Positions 2,095-57,812 of a stretch of DNA of 64,000 nt are shown in pieces. The notes under the pieces were generated by a model. That model did no database searches. It saw nothing but the letters and a program-made list of their open reading frames with translations, and was not told where the DNA came from. How positions within the stretch are numbered: position 1 is the first letter of the stretch; each line of letters starts with the position of its first letter. A program made the position numbers and the translations under genes. The stretch is from positions 38,626,001 through 38,690,000 of the forward strand of contig OX597818.1 in NCBI GenBank assembly GCA_951406725.2, in the 5' to 3' direction. This stretch comes from Octopus vulgaris (taxonomy: Eukaryota).

Positions 2095-3619
2095 ATTCAA
2101 ACTCTTTAGTATTCTGAGTTTCAAACATGGTGCTGACCTTTGGCCATTGGAGTTTGAATGAGAGGATGGTTGAAGAGAGTCAATGCTTATTATGGATGTT
2201 AGCCTGTGATTGGTTGAGAAAGATCATGTGGTATTGCAGTTTGATGTTGGTATTTCAGCGACAACAATTACTTTGAAAATACTGCACAGTTAAAAGGAAA
2301 TCGACTGCATGGTGCATATATCCACACATGGACACATACAGTGTGCAGATGTATATGCATATGCATGCACACTCATGTGCACGCGTATACTTGTGTGGTT
2401 ATGTACAAGGGGTGAGGGCATGTGCATAGACAGGCATGAAGAAGTGTTGGAGATTGCTGATTTGCGGTACTGTTCATGGGGGTTAGTTGGTGACAGTGAT
2501 CTTGGTGCAGGCAGGGGAAGCTGGTACTAAGGAGGCATATCCAGGTTGTTGGTGGCCAGTGGCTTGAAATTTACCAGAAGAGTATACCTTTGGTGGCAGC
2601 AACAGGATAGATCGTATTTCTTGTAGATGGATACTGCGGGTTGGTAGATGATATGCAGTTTTTCATGGAGGCAGAGCTGACAATTAGGGGCACCAGGTGA
2701 ATATGGTGATGTCCTGTTGACAATAGTCCACTCGATGCTGGGTGTTTCATCTTGGAGGTCATAGAATTTCCAGAGAAAGCACGACAGAGAAGTGGAGTTC
2801 TCTCTATCCCTGGATCTGAAAGAGTGTATGTGCTGGGAGTACATTCCCTTGAAGTCATTGGCTGTCATACCCATATAATGCCTAGTGATGCCATCGGATG
2901 GTGCAAGGGTGGCACTGTATACTACAGCCCTTGAGAGGCAGGATCCTTCTAGAGGACAGGTGATGGGATTTCGGCTGTTGCAAGTTGGGATTGAGGGTTG
3001 TGTGGATCATTTTTACGCCTGTTGATGTGTGCAATGTTGTCTAAGCAGGAGTAGCTCTCCTTAACATTATGGGGATTGAAGAGTTTGTAATACTATTGCC
3101 TTTGAGGAAATGTTTCTTAGTTAACGATAGGAAGCCCCTGGCTATGTTGGTAGAAACTTCTAGGTTAAATGGGAGGTTAGACCAGATAATTTTCCTTTTC
3201 CTAATTCTCTTGGAGTGAGGAGAGGGGGTTTGTGGATCGTCCACATATGTGAGCTTCTCAGAAAATCTGCTCTTAACCGAAGCATCCTTGTAGGGGGGGA
3301 GGGCAGCTCCATTAAATATTTCCCTATTGGAAGAGAGTTTAGATTCCCATTTGCTAATACCTGAAATCAGGTTTCTAATTACAAGGGTTGATTTCCTGTT
3401 CACCATGCAGTAATTTCCAGGTAATTGTTGTTGCTGAAATACCAACATCAAACTGTGACATTGCATGACCTTTCTCGACCAATTTCAGGCTAATGTTTGT
3501 AATATACATTGACTCTCTTCAATCATCCTCTCATTCAAACTCCAATGGCTGAAGATTAGTGCCATGCTTGAAACTCAGAGTACTAAGGAGTTTCAAGAAT
3601 GGTGCTAATCTTCAGCCAT
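2095..3619 (-). mobile_element. Penelope-like element (GIY-YIG), 5'-truncated, with inverted pseudo-LTRs
   Basis: RT C-terminus KLSSNREIF..RKRKIIWSNLPFN, Cys linker CNSRNPITCPLEGSCL, GIY-YIG-like VVY..YMGMT..FK and CQLCLHEK; 2095-2307 is an inverted copy of 3386-3593. Confidence 0.85.
3540..3590 (+). ncRNA. Candidate minimal type I hammerhead ribozyme motif in the Penelope pLTR
   Basis: CTGAAGA..GAAA core, stem III CTC-A-GAG, GTA triplet, imperfect stem I CTCCAATGG/CTAAGGAG; decayed copies at 2100-2152(-) and 3588-3619(-). Confidence 0.5.
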
Positions 3620-8535: not shown

Positions 8536-8945
8536 GTGGTGGTAGAATGAGGAGGTGATGGATGTGATAGTGAGGAAGAAGGAGGTGCACAAAGCTTTAT
8601 GTAATAATGGGACTCAGCAAATGAAAGCCAGGTATAAGAACATGAAGAATCATGCAAAGAGGGTAGTTGCGAGATCTATGAGGAAGGGGGCTGAGGAGAG
8701 GTTGAGCGGGATGGATGAGAACCCAGATAGAGTGTTTAGGTTTATTAAATCAATGAAAAAAGATGGAAGAGATGTTGAGGGACGAAGATGCACGAGGGGG
8801 AGTGATGGAAGGTTGAATTTTAGTGAAAAGGACAGTGGAGGAGTTTGGAAGGAGCATATGGAGGGGATTTTGAATGAGGAGAATGAATGGGATCAGAGGG
8901 TGGAAGTTGCTGTGGTAAAGGGGCCAGTGGAGAAGGTTAGTTAAT
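8536..8945 (+). mobile_element. RTE LINE fragment (endonuclease-RT linker)
   Basis: 129-aa ORF ..VFRFIKSMKKDGRDVEG..WKEHMEGILNEENEWD..GP, typical of the region before the RTE RT. Confidence 0.75.
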
Positions 8946-21703: not shown

Positions 21704-21854
21704 TCCAAATTATTTATCTCTCATCTATTTCAAACCATGAAATTGTTGTAAAATACTGACTTTCAATGACCATACTTTACATGGCAATGGGAGTGAGCTT
21801 AGCCCTTAAGCATTCAAATTATTTTATCAAATGTAATGCTTATATACTCACACT

Positions 21855-22850
21855 GCTTATATGCCAACTTAAAGAATGCCACAGTGCTGAAATATGCAGA
21901 TGACATCAAGCTGTACCTCGAAATAAAGAGGTCAGATCCTGTACACTATAGATCTCTATTGCAATCAGACCTGGACACAATGCAGCAGTGGATCATGGAC
22001 TGGCAGCTCAAGCTGGCTGTGGAAAAATGTACAACCATGCATTTTGGGAGAAAAAACCCAGCGTCTACCTACTCCCACCACAAAACTAATCTCAAAAAGT
22101 CTTCGTGTGAATCTGACCTGGGTGTTATTGTCGACAGCGATTTGTGTTGGACAAAACACATCGCTAAAATTTCCAAGAAGGCTGAGGGTGTCTTGGCATC
22201 ACTCACCAAGTCCTTTGTGAGCCGCTCTCCAGCTATCTATCTGCGGCTTTATATAGCTATGGTAAGACCTCACCTGGAATTTGCATCACCAGTCTGGAAC
22301 CCCTATCTTGCCCAGGATATTAATCGTCTGGAAGCCATTCAGCGACGTGCAACCAAAAGAATACCCTCCATCAAGCATTTGCCATATTCTGAACGCCTTA
22401 CTTCTCTGGGCATGGACACATTGAAACTCCGACGTCTGGCAGACACCCATAAAATTATTAACCATCTTACAAACAATAACTCTGAGTACCTTTTCAAACT
22501 CCACCCGTCTAACACCCGTGGGAATATTTACAAAGTCAGAAAACAGCACAGCTCCCATAACTTTAGGAAACATTTTTTCATGCTGAGAGTTGCTGAAGCA
22601 TGGAACAAACTACCAGCATCAGTTGTTAGTTGTCGGAGCACTGCATCCTTCAAAACTTCCATGCTTTCTGAGATTCGCCAACACAACAAATGATTTTCTC
22701 CCCTCCATTCACACGCAAGCATGTATCTGACTCATGCATTGTTCACTTTCCAGACATTTGTACATTACTGCATATACTTTATATGCACTTTCTGACAAGT
22801 TGTGGTGCACCTGAGCACTGCATACAATAATTTCATTATTATTATTATAA
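21855..22850 (+). mobile_element. CR1-clade LINE, 5'-truncated, open RT C-terminal ORF, inserted in a TTAA MITE (family 2, ~21803-22998)
   Basis: ORF with KYADDIKLY, WQLKLAVEKC, DLGVIVD, VRPHLEFASPVWNP, QRRATK, WNKLP; (TTA)n tail; flanks match the two halves of MITE 51915-52135. Confidence 0.9.
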
Positions 22851-24546: not shown

Positions 24547-26940
24547 ATTACTTGATATGTTGCAGTATATGGAACAATTCTATATCTTGGCTTACTGTTC
24601 CAAATGCACCAATTATTATAGGCATGACCTTTACTGTTTGCGCGCTCCAAATTTTTCCTATTTCAAATTTTAAGGGACAGTATTTTTTTTGTTTTTTATC
24701 CTCTTCCTTTATGATCTTCAAATCAAATGGCCATGATGGGTTGATAAGTAAGAAACTTTGCTTTTCCCTATCTATAATCATTATGTCTGGTCTATCATTT
24801 TCTAATTTCTTGTCTATTTGAATAGGAAAGTCCCACAAAATCTTAAATTTTTCCGACTCGATGATAGTACTTACATTACTCTTTTGACTTAATGATGGTA
24901 CTATATGTTTCCAGCTTCAAATCCCAATTTTTGGCACAGTTTCCAGTGTATAACTTTACCCTGGTTGTGCCTCCATTTCTTATATTCTTCCTGTGACAAC
25001 ATGGGGCATACTGTCACAATGTGTGCCACTGCCTCACTCCAAGTTCTACAAGCTCTAAATTTTTCTGACATATTCTCTCCATACATATTTTTTCTCAAGT
25101 TGTTTGTTTTTATTGCTTGATCTTGGACTGCTACAATCAGGTTTTCTGTTACTTTTTTTAATTGCCCCCTTTTTTGACCAAACCCAGAATTTTGTTCCAC
25201 ATACGTTTTCAGTGGCTTTCCCCAAAAATTGGCTCCTATTACACACTTCATCACCTGTTCTTTATTACCTTTTTTTAGTAGTGTTTCTATGCTGCTCTGC
25301 AAATACTTTAGCAGACTTTTCTTTTCAACTGTACCCATTCTTCTACTGCTATTAAGCCTCTCCCACCTTGATCTCTCCACAAGTACAGCTGATTGATATG
25401 AGCTTTCAGATGGTGGGGTCCATACATTGTCAACAACTTCCTAGTTTTTCTGTCAAGTTTCTTTTATATTGTTTCTGGTTTAGTCAATAATTCCAACACC
25501 ATATCTAATTAAGGATAAAAAAATAATAAATTTCGGCCTTTTCAATCCTAGCCAGGCTCATGGGCCTGTTTTCCCAGTTTCTGTGGCATATGTGTTCCCC
25601 CCAGCTGGACAGGACGCCAGTCCATTGCGGTGTTACTCAAGAAACAGGAAGAGAGAGTGAGAAAGTTGTGGCGAAAGAGTACAACAAGGGTCACTACCAC
25701 CCCCTGCCAGAGCCTCATGGAGCTTTTGGGTGTTTTTGCTCAATAAACACACACAACGCCCGGTCTGAGAATTGAAACCGCAATCCTCCGACAGCGAGTC
25801 CAATGCCCTAACCACTGGGCCATTGTGATCTGATTAAGGATGCTGCCCTGGAATTTATTGCTTCAATAAGATTTTTGGAATTCAGATTTGACTTCAATAA
25901 TCTTCTGACTCTCCTTGTGTACTGCATATTGGTAATTTGTTTCATTTATTCATTTTTTTTCTTGTCTGCTTCTAGTATTCCCAAGTACTTATACCACTGT
26001 CCTTTCCCAACTGCTCTCATTGTTTGCTTGTTTGGCATTTTGATTCCTTGGCTTCTTTCAAATCTTCCTCATTTCATTTTCAATAAAGCACACTTTTCTA
26101 TCCCAAATCCCATTCCCATGTCATTTGAGAAAATGCAGATAGTATATACAAGACTTTCAAGCTGTTTCTCATTTTTGCACAAACCTCACCTACTTGTCAT
26201 CCAAGCAAGGATGTGACCTTGCTGCAGGCAGTCATCCAATTGCACAGCGATCCTTTCATGCAACTGTGTAAAAGTTCTTCAGCCAATAGCCTTGTACTCC
26301 ATCTGGGCCTGATCCTTTCCAATTTGCTATTTTTTTTCCTAACTCCTGCCTCACTGTAAATAAATTAATTCTGACATCCTTTTGTCTTGGTACAGCTGCA
26401 AGTTGTCTTTCCACCTTTGTTAGCCACTCTGTGCCTTCTTTGTCTTGTCGGCTTGTTCCACAGCCTTCCCCCAAATTCTTTACTTTCTTCTGTATCTGGA
26501 ATCAGTTTCTGGTGTTGGCCTCCCTCTATTTCCTCAAATAGACACCTTCTATTTGATTGGAACAGTGTATTCTGTTTGAAACCTTTGCATCTAGCATCAC
26601 ATCTTTTCAATTTAGTCTTTAATGCTGTCACCTTTTGTATCAATTCTTCATGTACTGTTCGTTTTCCCCTTTCTTCTAACCAGTACTGTCCATTCAATTT
26701 TCTGATTACTCCCTTATTTTTGAGTTCTCTCATTATCCTATTCAATCACCCCAGTTCTTTCCATGTCTTTTTCAGCTTCATTCGTATTCTTTTCCCCCAG
26801 TTTGGTTCTTTCTTTTCTGACAGTGTGAAGTACAGTGTAGTGTGCACTTTTTGGTTCTTTTGTATTTTGTATCGTTGCGGATAGGATATCTGTTGTTGAT
26901 TGTTTTGACTTGTGATATTATTTGCCTTTGTTGCTTTTTT
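24547..26940 (-). mobile_element. Degenerate R4/Dong-like non-LTR element (restriction-like endonuclease), RT core apparently deleted
   Basis: NWKGSGPDGVQGYWLK, GMGFGIEKCA, knuckle ACR..EAVAHIVTVC, RHNQGKVIHWKLC, WDFPIQ..RPDIMIID, IIIGAFGTV. Confidence 0.85.
25517..25827 (-). mobile_element. tRNA-SINE (chimeric head/tail) nested in the R4/Dong-like element
   Basis: A box TGGCCCAGTGG; TSD ATCTRATTAAGGAT at 25503-25516 and 25828-25841. Confidence 0.8.
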
Positions 26941-34704: not shown

Positions 34705-36036
34705 GAACTTTAATTCATCCGTATCTCTATTTATTATTATTATTTATTAATTATTATTATTCTGATCCCCCTAGTCGCCACTCTGTTTACTATTTCAGCC
34801 TCGCCTCGTTTTTTTTTTTTTTTTGCATATTCTGTATAATTCACTAGTTATCGTTATAGATATTTAGGTTCTATCTCCCTTACAGAGCTGATTAGAAATT
34901 GGCTGCCCGTTCTTCGCGGGGTTTTCTCTCCCCCTCTTTTTACATTGTCTGTCTGGACTCCTCTTCCTACTCCTCGACATGGCCATGCATACTTAAGCTA
35001 GTAACCTGCCTCACTCTTGATTCTGAACTCCTTTTGCCAAGTCTGTCCGTAAGCGAAGTGATCCCAAGATAAGAAATCTTTGAACTTTAATTCATCCGTA
35101 TCTCTATTTATTATTATTATTTATTAATTATTATTATTCTGATCCCCCTAGTCGCCACTCTGTTTACTATTTCAGCCTCGCCTCGTTTTTTTGCATATTC
35201 TGTATAATTCACTAGTTATCGTTATAGATATTTAGGTTCTATCTCCCTTACAGAGCTGATTAGAATTTGGCTGCCCGTTCTTCGCGGGGTTTCTCTCCCC
35301 CTCTTTTTACATTGTCTGTCTGGACTCCTCTTCCTACTCCTCGACATGGCCATGCATACTTAAGCTAGTAACCTGCCTCACTCTTGATTCCGAACTCCTT
35401 TTGCCAAGTCTGTCCGTAAGCGAAGTGATCCCAAGATAAGAAATCTTTGAACTTTAATTCATCCGTATCTCTATTTATTATTATTATTTATTAATTATTA
35501 TTATTCTGATCCCCCTAGTCGCCACTCTGTTTACTATTTCAGCCTCGCCTCGTTTTTTTTTTTTTGCATATTCTGTATAATTCACTAGTTATCGTTATAG
35601 ATATTTAGGTTCTATCTCCCTTACAGAGCTGATTAGAAATTGGCTGCCGGTTCTTCGCGGGGTTTCTCTCCCCCTCTTTTTACATTGTCTGTCTGGACTC
35701 CTCTTCCTACTCCTCGACATGGCCATGCATACTTAAGCTAGTAACCTGCCTCACTCTTGATTCCGAACTCCTTTTGCCAAGTCTGTCCGTAAGCGAAGTG
35801 ATCCCAAGATAAGAAATCTTTGAACTTTAATTCATCCGTATCTCTATTTATTATTATTATTTATTAATTATTATTATTCTGATCCCCCTAGTCGCCACTC
35901 TGTTTACTATTTCAGCCTCGCCTCGTTTTTTTTTTTTTTTTGCATATTCTGTATAATTCACTAGTTATCGTTATAGATATTTAGGTTCTATCTCCCTTAC
36001 AGAGCTGATTAGAAATTGGCTGCCCGTTCTTCGCGG
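34705..36036 (+). repeat. Tandem array of ~370-bp units (3.6 copies, near-identical)
   Basis: Units start 34705, 35082, 35449, 35822; they differ mainly in poly-T length. Confidence 0.97.
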
Positions 36037-36114
36037 CGCGCCCGCCATACCCACCCCCACCACCAATACCGGATATCTCTATTTTGCTCCAACTATACCG
36101 GATGTCGTTTCTCC

Positions 36115-36745
36115 CACCATTATAGGTGTCTACTCTTTGAACCCCTCTCTTCAATACGCTATTTCACCATGCATTACCCCTCTCTCGATATCCTACGTTC
36201 TACTTGCCTAGAACCTGTCCTCTGAACCACCCCTCCCACTGGTGCTCCCCCATATTTCTGCACCCCCACCACCATTATAGGTGTCTACTCTTTGAACCCC
36301 CCTCTTCAATACGCTATTTCACCATGCATTACCCCTCTCTCGATATCCTACGTTCTTCTTGCCTAGAACCTGTCCTCTGAACCACCCCTCCCGCTGGTGC
36401 TCCCCTATATTTCTGCACCCCCACCACCACCATTATAGGTGTCTACTCTTTGAACCCCCCTCTTCAATACGCTATTTCACCATTTCACCATGCATTACCC
36501 CTCTCTCGATATCCTACGTTCTACTTGCCTAGAACCTGTCCTCTGAACCACCCCTCCCACTGGTGCTCCCCTATATTTCTGCACCCCCACCACCATTATA
36601 GGTGTCTACTCTTTGACCCCCTCTTCAATACGCTATTTCACCATGCATTACCCCTCTCTCGATATCCTACGTTCTACTTGCCTATTACCTGTCCTCTGAA
36701 CCACCCCTCCCACTGGTGCTCCCCTATATTTCTGCCCCCCCCCCC
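36115..36745 (+). repeat. C-rich VNTR, ~155-bp unit x4
   Basis: CACCATTATAGGTGTCTACTC units at 36115, 36270, 36428, 36591; single homologous unit at ~56182-56341. Confidence 0.95.
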
Positions 36746-36986
36746 ATAAAAAAAAAAAAAAAAAAAAAAAAGCACCATCCGAACGTGGCCGATGCCAGAC
36801 CCCTCTGGCACCTGTGCAGGTGGCACGTAAAAAACACCCACTACACTCGTGGAGTGGTTGGCGTTAGGAAGGGCATCCAGCTGTAGAAACACTGCCAGAC
36901 TAGACTGGAGCCTGGGGCAGTCCCGAGCTCTCAGACCCCGGTCGAAACCGTCCAACCCGTGCTAGCGCGGAAAACGGACGTTAAAC

Positions 36987-37028
<42 letters not shown>

Positions 37029-55225: not shown

Positions 55226-56820
55226 CTGTAAATTTTCCCCCCAAAATTTAAAGGTCAAAGTCCCTAGTGCGTACTATATATGAGGTTAAAAATGAAAAAA
55301 TTTTCTAAGCAATGTTCGAGTCTCCATTTGCTGTCCGGCAATGTTTATTCAGATGCATTTTGTGATGTCGGGCGCAAAAATACCTTAAGCTAAGCCTGAA
55401 AGCAATGAAGTCATAAAAGGATCATCCATAACTTGCAGTAAGCAACATTTATTAAAATAAAAGTATTCAGAACACAGAATAACATGCAACAAAAACAATT
55501 TGTAAACATATTTACATTCCCATATAACAGTTAAGAACATCACCGTTATTGTATAACGCATTCACCTAGCAGCTATATCCTGAGTACAGATAAGTTGAAA
55601 ACTTATTTTCACTTCTCGACCAATCATACTACACTCAAAACATGTTTTTATCTATCTATCTATTTTATCCACTTCCATTTCTCCACCGTCCCTTATTTAT
55701 TTTGCCCGTCTAAGTCCTCGCTCTCTCGTCTATCAACCTTTGCGTATTCCTTTATTAATTTTGCCCGTCCAAATCCTCGCTCTCTCGTCTATCAACCTTC
55801 GCCATCTTGAAGTCCGTTTCTTTAGTACACTTCCGCCTTGTCTAAAAATTCCCCTTCCGGTCAACTTTACTTAAAAGGCAACCCCACACGTGCTCTATCT
55901 CATTCACCTAGCAGCTATATCCTGAGTACAGATAAGTTGAAAACTTATTTTCACTTCTCGACCAATCATACTACACTCAAAACATGTTTTTATCTATCTA
56001 TCTATTTTATCCACTTCCATTTCTCCACCGTCCCTTTATTTATTTTGCCCGTCTAAGTCCTCGCTCTCTCGTCTATCAACCTTTGCGTATTCGCGGTGCA
56101 CTCGCCCTTGCCCACCCCCACCACCAATACCGGATATCTCTATATTTTTGCTCCATCTATACCGGATGTCGCTTCTCCCATCACCATTATAGGTGTCTAC
56201 TCTTCGAACCCCCCTCTTCAATACGCTATTTCACCATGCATTACCCCTCTCGTAATATCCTACATTCTACTTGTCTAGAACCTGTCATCGTTTATCCGAA
56301 CACCCCCTTCCACTGGTGCTCCCTTATATTTCTGCCCCCCCACATAAAAAGTACCATCCGAACGTGGCCGATGCCAGCACCGCCCCGACTGGCTTCTGTG
56401 CAGGTGGCACATAAAAGGCACCAACCGACCGTGGCCGATGCCAGACCCCTCTGGCACTTGTGCAGGTGGCACGTAAAAAGCACCCACTACACTCGCGGAG
56501 TGGTTGGCGTTAGGAAGGGCATCCAGCTGTAGAAACACTGCCAGACCAGACTGGAGCCTGGGGCAGCCCCTGGCTCCCCAGACCCCGGTCGAAACCGTCC
56601 AACCCGTGCTAGCGCGGAAAACGGACGTTAAACGATGATGATGATGATGATGATGCGCAGAAGTGTTTGTTCGACCAGGTGCTGCTGGTTTAATTACGCA
56701 TGACTCAAGTTAGAGAAGGGGTGCGTATTATACACAAGGTTTAGGTTTTTCAGAGGTACAACCCACTAAAACTCCTCTGTGTATTATACTCAAGGGTGGA
56801 CTATACTCGAGGATTTACGG
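55226..56820. mobile_element. Tc1/mariner (pogo-like) non-autonomous element split by composite copy 2
   Basis: TA|CTGTAAAT...ATTTACGG|TA termini; subterminal GTGCGTAYTATA motifs in both halves. Confidence 0.65.
55559..56655 (+). mobile_element. Composite retroposon copy 2
   Basis: 342-bp unit x1.56 (55559, 55901), then the same linker, one VNTR unit and family-R tail as copy 1; possible CGCA TSD. Confidence 0.75.
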
Positions 56821-56943
56821 TATGTGAATGTTGGTCTTACTAGAAATAGTAGTCAAGTCTCTTTCAAAATTTACATACTGCTATTTTAAAAAAAAGATAA
56901 AAGGAACTACATATTGGATTAATGCTTAAGGATTAATGGAAAG

Positions 56944-57037
56944 TATGATAAAGATGATGATGATAAAGATGATGATGAAGATGATGATAAAGATGATGAC
57001 GAAGATGATGATAAAGATGATGACGAAGATGATGATA
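56944..57037. repeat. (GAT)-derived 24-bp minisatellite
   Basis: GATAAAGATGATGAYGAAGATGAT repeated about 3.5 times. Confidence 0.85.
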
Positions 57038-57069
57038 AAAACAAAAAAAATGTCTTCAATGAACCATAC

Positions 57070-57290
57070 CGTGTAGTCATTGGTATAATTTGATATGTCT
57101 TCAGCTGTAATCTCTTGGTTTGGCAGATGGAATTTTTTTTAAATATTTCATTGATGACTTCAGACAGTTGTCCAATTCTCTGGTCTTGACGTAAATCTTC
57201 TCCACATTTTACTATGAAGGGATATTCCTTTTGATTGTTACCTCGAATTATAATCTTTCTTGGCTTTTGTAATGATCTGAAGGTTTGGAC
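57070..57290 (-). CDS. PRKDC: DNA-PKcs kinase N-lobe exon
   Basis: tttaag/gtatgg, phase 0-2; VQTFRSLQKPRKIIIRG..FIVKCGEDLRQDQR..LKTYQIIPMTTR. Confidence 0.97.
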
Positions 57291-57812
57291 CTTAAAAAAG
57301 AGAAAGAGAAAAAAAGACAATGGGTGTGAGGTTAAGAAGCTTGTTTTGCAACCAAGTGATTTCAGGTTCAGTCTCGTTGTGTGTCAACTCAGGAAAGTGT
57401 CTTCTACTATAGCCTTGGGCTGACCAATGCCTAAGGAGTGAATTAGGCTGAAAGAAACTATGTGGAACCCCATTCTGTACATATTCATTTATTTGCTTCA
57501 GTCATTAGACTGCGGTCATGCTGGAGCACCACCTATAGTTGAACAAATTGACCCTAGGACTTATTCTTTGAAAGCCTAGTATTTACTCTATTAGTCTCTT
57601 TTGCCACACCGCTGAGTTACGGGGACGTAAACACACCAGCAATGGTTGTCAAGTGATGGTGGTGGTGGGGACACACAGACGTACAAACATACACACACAC
57701 ATACATATATGCGTGGCACCTTGGGCAAGTGTCTTCTTCTATAGCCTCGGGCCGACCAAAGCCTTCTGAGTGGATTTGGTAGATGGAAACTGAAAGAAGC
57801 CCGTCGTATATA

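Follow-up and report, generated by a model that had tools for sequence, protein, structure and literature searches.

Retroelements made of the two ends of an RTE-type LINE have been described as bipartite non-autonomous RTEs, among them RTESINE1/2, WALLSI3, MAR4_MD, RTE-N2_Lch and Bov-A (Kojima 2018, PMC5786205). According to the accessible part of that article, an internal deletion fuses the RTE 5' UTR to the 3' UTR, no ORF is left and a microsatellite tail is kept, as in the octopus elements reported here, whereas RTE-N2_Lch consists of 214 + 70 bp and the octopus copies add 5' monomer arrays that reach 16 kb, as well as several swapped monomer types; the word 'tandem' is absent from its main text. 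Such arrays are known from the mouse L1 families A, Gf and Tf, in which tandem monomers of several types and in variable number, with a YY1-like motif, precede a tether, again as in the octopus (PMC6454616, PMC9022269). The portion of the mouse work at hand gives a mean of 2.7-3.1 monomers, with 99% of the copies at 10 or fewer and a mixed 50-mer, 5' ends that cluster at the start site and subtypes with a position preference (PMC6454616). In comparison, the octopus family belongs to another LINE clade, has more than 10 monomers in 7/85 copies, shows no phase clustering and contains near-uniform long arrays; unlike those of mouse L1, its arrays also ride on non-autonomous copies. The upkeep of the mouse arrays is left unresolved in the text available, second-strand-priming expansion and unequal crossing-over both being open models (Zhou and Smith 2019, PMC6454616).

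Two RTEs are also close in other respects. In SolRTE from tobacco, as in the octopus, the 5' UTR was repeatedly replaced while ORF and 3' end were conserved, and template switching was proposed; SolRTE is described without tandem monomers, 'tandem' and 'monomer' occurring 0 times in the text as available (Hartig 2022, 10.1101/2022.11.04.512097). RTE-2_OV, from Octopus vulgaris itself, is likewise a single-ORF RTE, with a protein of ~1100 aa and UTRs of ~600 nt, for which the accessible text does not mention tandem 5' repeats (Petrosino 2022, PMC9115989). Identity with this element was rejected, as 0/11 of the published primers match the seven RTE-bearing loci compared at fewer than 5 mismatches. 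No description of the present family, or of monomer arrays on an RTE, was found in the literature, although Repbase, Dfam and the octopus library of Bonar 2026 (PMC13282606) may hold pieces of it.

Two deleted RTE copies in one window

The window, i.e. the whole stretch of 64,000 nt of O. vulgaris DNA that was analysed, contains two elements whose parts are collected in Table 1. The order originally predicted for them, namely a junction TTCGCGG, a linker, a 155-bp unit (x4 vs x1) and a tail, was borne out by TRF and BLAST: linker and first 155-bp unit are 86% identical between the two (36030-36269 vs 56090-56343) and the tails are 95% alike, element 2 having one more 67-bp repeat than element 1, which carries its A24 run there. 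The upstream arrays are unrelated, as had been claimed, since no BLAST match was found between the ~370-bp unit (x3.6) and the 342-bp unit (x1.56). Also upheld were the perfect (GAT)n of element 1 and the restriction of the tail variants GAGCCTGGGGCAG and CCCGTGCTAGCGCGG to these two elements, which alone carry them among 10 aligned tail copies (2/10, the alignment comprising both elements and 8 of the further ~25 copies that the window holds of tail-like sequence). TTCGCGG is indeed shared, but it is not an independent junction part: it lies inside every ~370-bp monomer of element 1 and also directly before the linker in ORF-bearing RTEs, where it belongs to the 5' UTR. The linker of element 1 contains what we take to be GC-box-like and CACCC-like motifs, and the type D monomers of element 2 carry the motifs CGCCATCTT and CTTCCGG.

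Table 1. Features of elements 1 and 2 (window coordinates)
Feature	Position	Strand	Basis
Element 1, 5' array, type A monomers, ~370 bp x3.6, 5'-truncated	34705..36036	+	TRF, 373-bp unit, 97%
Element 1, TTCGCGG, 7-nt microhomology between A monomer and RTE 5' UTR start	36030..36036	+	sequence
Element 1, linker, first part of RTE 5' UTR, tether-like	36037..36113	+	
Element 1, 155-bp unit x4.0, amplified piece of RTE 5' UTR	36114..36744 (TRF 36114-36741)	+	
Element 1, A24 run and RTE 3' UTR tail	36745..36986	+	sequence, BLAST
Element 1, perfect (GAT)13.7, 3' microsatellite tail	36987..37027	+	TRF
Element 2, 5' array, type D monomers, 342 bp x1.56	55559..56092	+	copies 55559-55749 vs 55901-56092, 99.5%
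Element 2, TTCGCGG, linker and one 155-bp unit, RTE 5' UTR	56090..56339	+	L284 alignment
Element 2, RTE 3' UTR, 67-bp repeats and (GAT)n	56341..56655	+	deletion junction 56339/56341

No RT reading frame is present at either element among the ORF translations of the window. The origin of element 2 becomes apparent from its alignment to the ORF-bearing copy L284: positions 56032-56339 match L284 5172-5480 at 87% (the same 5' block at 88% in L270 and 86% in L282), and 56341-56630 match L284 9058-9345 at 93%, with the same picture in L270 and L282. Since the two blocks align to the ends of L284 with 3.58 kb between them, this stretch, including the ORF, has been deleted from element 2. In addition, linker and 155-bp unit lie in the 5' UTR of full-length ORF-bearing RTEs. 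Homology to the 5' UTR and to the 3' end, a (GAT)n tail on both elements, the ORF deletion and dispersed, 5'-truncated copies of the unit were thus all found, and both elements are almost certainly bipartite non-autonomous RTEs, with the 5' UTR fused to the 3' UTR and the ORF lost. SVA and LAVA are non-autonomous, VNTR-bearing and LINE-mobilised, and SVA joins parts of unrelated elements. The SVA-like composite origin put forward in the original prediction had to be abandoned: linker, 155-bp unit and tail, and hence all that follows the monomers, come from one RTE LINE by internal deletion.

The young tail has 2025 exact matches; of the first 30, 6 follow an RT-type reading frame. The partner LINE, represented by locus L195, has a single frame of 1095 aa, in which PF03372/PF14529 and PF00078 score above the cut-off and a PHD domain below it. 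As defined in the accessible text of Hartig 2022 (10.1101/2022.11.04.512097), the RTE clade has one ORF, which encodes AP endonuclease and RT, lacks ORF1 and ends in a microsatellite tail. This layout, one ORF with endonuclease and RT followed by a microsatellite tail, is that of the partner LINE. Its classification as an RTE, as read from the sequence, rests on this layout and on C-terminal motifs that we take to be those of the clade; among its 1072 relatives of the same layout, nearly all lack a family name.

The abundant tail-only copies in the window (the 'family R' of the original prediction) are probably 5'-truncated ends of this RTE. Its 3' UTR varies, the 67-bp repeat being present in ~1 to 11 copies (L139, L135, L161, L274). 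In three RTE copies (L197 8080-8447, L278 9089-9448 and L162), the 3' UTR holds the end of a 155-bp unit before the tail, and this tail is 95-98% like that of element 2. These three copies are likely recombinants between autonomous and deleted RNAs; L197 and L278 being ORF-bearing, their 3' ends would point to an exchange between the two kinds of RNA. Fragments of other elements, which we presume from their translations to be non-LTR and Penelope-like, occur in the window at 21803-22693 (+), 24548-25440 (-), 2527-3484 (-) and 8546-8944 (+).

Array, linker and tail were inserted as one unit. Paralogues of the host repeat of element 1 join its two flanks directly in 6/19 cases at offset 0 (BLAST), most of the others being visibly alike, and 18/19 paralogues of the element 2 host repeat join the flanks at the expected offset. 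For element 2, an exact empty-site pattern gave 0 matches, and flank searches then located these paralogues; the flank of element 1 is a high-copy repeat, in which alleles and paralogues are indistinguishable. Elsewhere, a copy with 18.8 type C monomers (L096) interrupts a LINE reading frame. Together with the flank-joining paralogues and with 15/15 sampled type A loci, this upholds the claim that satellite-like arrays are co-mobilised. Cataloguing the target-site duplications, as had been proposed, succeeded in part. The right junction and the site of element 1 show no target duplication and both window sites have 0-2 bp; element 2 sits in CATG, of which CAT matches the monomer and ATG the tail (18/19). 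In addition, (TA)n adjoins 41/72 of the 5' ends and 40/72 of the 3' ends, the value for window tiles being 0.9%, and duplications are mostly unreadable in such (TA)n, with a few candidates of 6-7 bp (L086, L089, L090).

As for the genomic setting, an exon for a PI3/PI4-kinase domain lies at 56919-57383 (-), with the domain near 57060-57227, and its sequence resembles that of DNA-PKcs. The window likely spans introns of this gene. On account of this nearby minus-strand exon, element 2 would be intronic and antisense to the kinase gene, as would, probably, element 1.

A dispersed family with exchangeable monomers

In the 2.80 Gb of genome searched (227 contigs), the 26-nt core of the linker is matched exactly 536 times and its reversed control 0 times, which argues that the linker family is not due to chance; it has at least ~500 copies. 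The best 30 of 779 candidates for this first linker (40 scored) all consist of type A monomer, linker, 155-bp unit x1-10 and tail, and 60/60 further matches carry unit and tail, so that a linker mostly devoid of tail, a possibility raised beforehand, was not encountered. A sample independent of similarity (30 matches, corresponding to 29 loci, on contig C1) gave the upstream modules B in 11 loci, C in 6, D-like in 6, A in 4, E in 1 and none in 1. Altogether, the 89 loci draw on about six recurrent types of monomer, and the junction is fixed. The genome-wide linker search suggested at the outset therefore returned a few recurrent types instead of one-off units. Types A and B are distant homologues, with 70-76% identity in patches; C, D and E match A/B in short or simple-repeat patches only, and mosaic monomers exist. 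Besides, a search seeded with the A monomer led in 15/15 sampled loci into 155-bp unit and tail, one of them lacking the linker, which speaks against independent satellites, and a stand-alone source locus of monomers was found neither here nor at the D loci checked.

A second linker variant, with 514 matches including tandem copies, stands at the head of another short family, parallel to the first, whose monomers are of type F. Loci L104-L133 represent a second, independent deleted family derived from the F-type RTE, with linker 2, 34-bp linker repeats and monomers of 247-333 bp. Some chimeras of the form E-linker-D-linker were also observed (E-linker2-D'-linker1 at L119, L120, L124 and L128). 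Flank-sharing copies were recognised as segmental duplicates (L011/L012/L029 and L044/L045), L011 and L012 lying inverted ~6 kb apart on C21. One A-monomer array (L208, C9:69.04M) is broken by another, different RTE copy, whose frame is 945 aa long.

Tandem monomers upstream of the tether are also found on autonomous copies (L194, L195, L196/L286, L269, L271): 86 bp x16.2 upstream of the ORF-bearing RTE at L194, 392 bp x35 or more at L196+L286, 146 bp x8.6 at L271 and about two F monomers at L195. Among 19 extended ORF-bearing loci, the upstream sequence is D-like in 4 (L269, L270, L281, L282), C-like in 4 and a duplication ending at the linker in 7; extended, older ORF-bearing RTEs mostly have fewer than ~2 monomers, and type A or B monomers were seen on none of the ORF-bearing copies examined. 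These observations show that the arrays belong to the RTE LINE itself and are carried also by its deleted derivatives. With the 89 loci and the ORF-bearing RTEs, the first reading of the original prediction, that of swappable, recurring monomers with 5' truncation, is supported, although the 5' ends show no preferred phase.

The 5' monomers probably serve as Pol II promoters, a putative role suggested by their position, which is that of the mouse L1 monomers, by CGCCAT in 5/6 types and by the retention of CpG. CGCCAT, a YY1-like core picked post hoc, averages 0.55 in shuffles, 0/300 of which reached the observed count, and is missing from element 1's own monomer variant; the monomer CpG o/e is 0.7-1.4 vs 0.36 for the window. 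The 5' ends show no phase clustering in these small samples (Rayleigh test, p=0.17 for 29 A copies and p=0.71 for 24 B copies), and since they are unclustered, unlike what the available mouse L1 data display (PMC6454616), no start site is visible. In all monomer types, G is scarce on the sense strand (9-16%). Contigs of three runs, whose RNA origin is guessed, cover monomer and body and are not counted as evidence.

Other heads were considered and rejected. Rfam gave no ribozyme in element 1 at E up to 5 or in 8 loci at E up to 1, sub-threshold chance matches aside, which argues against a ribozyme or small-RNA head. In the same element and loci, the absence of any tRNA, 5S or 7SL match speaks against a tRNA-headed SINE. 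Retrozymes are ribozyme-bearing tandem retroelements with a self-cleaving ribozyme per monomer; this identity was set aside, as no known ribozyme family appeared in the scans, which novel folds could escape. Monomer folds have z-scores of -0.7 to +1.7, and linker plus 155-bp unit z=-2.8 on 40 shuffles. Back-splicing was dismissed as well, splice-acceptor motifs in monomers not being enriched over shuffles.

Behaviour and upkeep of the 5' arrays

In 85 copies (four duplicates or same-locus matches and one monomer-less copy being left out), the median is 1.5 monomers, with 2 or more in 30 copies, 9 or more in 8, more than 10 in 7 and a maximum of 44; the 5' arrays extend up to 16 kb. Such a heavy-tailed length distribution hints at a second process. 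Monomers 1 and 2 of the same copy differ by 0.46/0.30/0.24% (types A/B/C; 11, 7 and 4 copies), and the same monomer position differs by 1.2-2.7% between copies. The internal 155-bp array behaves in the opposite manner: in 29 copies, first and last unit differ by 1.73% within a copy, while the differences between copies are 0.74% for the first unit and 1.49% for the last. Its variants are position-specific and common to sibling copies, with a maximum of 10 units, and one four-unit pattern is common to element 1, L011, L020, L028 and L030. In the 5' array, the sole shared position-specific variant is at the linker end of monomer 1. Two substitutions private to element 1 are present in every 5' monomer that covers those positions, and such private fixed substitutions occur in 4/21 arrays that have at least 3 monomers, seven copies having been omitted as duplicates or as mis-split.

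Ten long arrays were compared outside masked runs. Four are free of substitutions throughout their complete interior monomers, of which they have 9 to 44, the array on C12 (46.45M) having 44 full monomers with 0 substitutions; one has singletons only, two show period-3 patterns (C2:58.74M, C1:70.54M) and three irregularly spaced shared variants (C14:37.32M, C28:8.40M, C1:134.56M), which one of the period-3 arrays has as well. Arrays of 9-44 monomers sit on bodies that are 0-1 differences per 233 sites away from the nearest sibling. A complete 5' end was seen in no copy, and the phases look uniform (A n=29, B n=24).

On balance, we lean towards young internally deleted RTEs with exchangeable 5' promoter arrays that are re-extended during reverse transcription; for the coupling of array extension to reverse transcription taken by itself, the chances appear even. 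Mobilisation in trans through a shared 3' end is established for LINE partners. The partner RTE protein would bind the 3' UTR, which both share, and prime at (GAT)n/TA-rich targets. Transcription would start within or upstream of a monomer, such that 5' sequence would be lost at each cycle. At the RNA's 5' end, the RT could jump back to the corresponding position in a monomer further downstream or in a sister RNA; repeated jumps would write many copies of a unit of 1-3 monomers until the RT falls off. The monomer type would be swapped by a jump to a different RNA via short homology (TTCGCGG, TCAACCTTCGC). In its fullest form, that the RTE rebuilds its own promoter at each retrotransposition by rolling-circle-like re-copying, yielding uniform arrays up to 16 kb and type swaps, the proposal is a tentative one.

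The same bipartite RTE with promoter monomers may instead have arrays that grow and homogenise at the DNA level, either in source copies or once inserted, through unequal exchange, slippage or gene conversion, and that are passively transcribed and truncated, which is a strong rival, though a less probable account. It would explain the irregularly spaced shared variants of three long arrays and the heavy-tailed lengths, it predicts edge effects such as the sole shared position-specific variant at the array edge, and an unsampled source copy could account for the private fixed variants; moreover, the mouse 50-monomer promoter was assigned to unequal crossing-over in the accessible text of Zhou and Smith (PMC6454616). 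However, the adjacent 155-bp array of the same copies, with 10 units or fewer, is not homogenised, sequence-unrelated monomers all expand and do so solely in the 5' position, and the long uniform arrays on near-identical bodies leave little time. These observations, together with the lack of a complete 5' end, favour upkeep by RT jumps, although both processes may act.

The second reading of the original prediction, in which the RT jumps onto free small circular RNA or DNA and copies it by rolling circle, each capture being separate, is now unlikely. An endless template would fit the long runs in which monomers are identical, the period-3 patterns and the random phase of the 5' ends, and there is microhomology at the A junction; but about six unit types recur with fixed junctions that are common to whole subfamilies, at variance with a fresh jump and a one-off unit per insertion, the loci checked hold no stand-alone source, and neither Rfam ribozymes in or near the monomers nor unusual folds or enriched splice acceptors were found. 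In a weaker form of this reading, the circles may come from monomers of the element itself, and the array pattern is still compatible with re-copying in the manner of a rolling circle. Single differences between repeats can be lost through polishing, and short-read polishing could thus exaggerate uniformity here. It is nevertheless highly improbable that assembly or polishing created the long uniform arrays as artefacts and that the element is an ordinary bipartite RTE with just 1-3 monomers: an additional A array of 12 kb (L204) does stop at an assembly gap, but most long arrays are assembled at both ends, monomer-to-monomer joints are present in contigs of 4/4 independent public runs, and polishing would not yield array-wide private variants or period-3 patterns.

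Meaning for LINE promoters and satellites

Bipartite RTEs, 5' switching in RTEs and monomer promoters with rare 50-mers are each known alone. Their combination, in which an RTE and its deleted derivatives both bear monomer arrays, some of them long and uniform, appears to be new with respect to the literature found. The family offers a second, independent case of monomer upkeep in another LINE clade, and it brings its own control: the internal 155-bp array is passed on with each position keeping its variants, whereas the 5' array is written anew. A retroposon here seeds multi-kilobase uniform tandem arrays genome-wide, which annotators would likely file as separate satellites. If promoter rebuilding by the RT is true, the maintenance of monomer promoters in LINEs would become directly testable, and the octopus family would provide a retrotransposon route to dispersed satellites.
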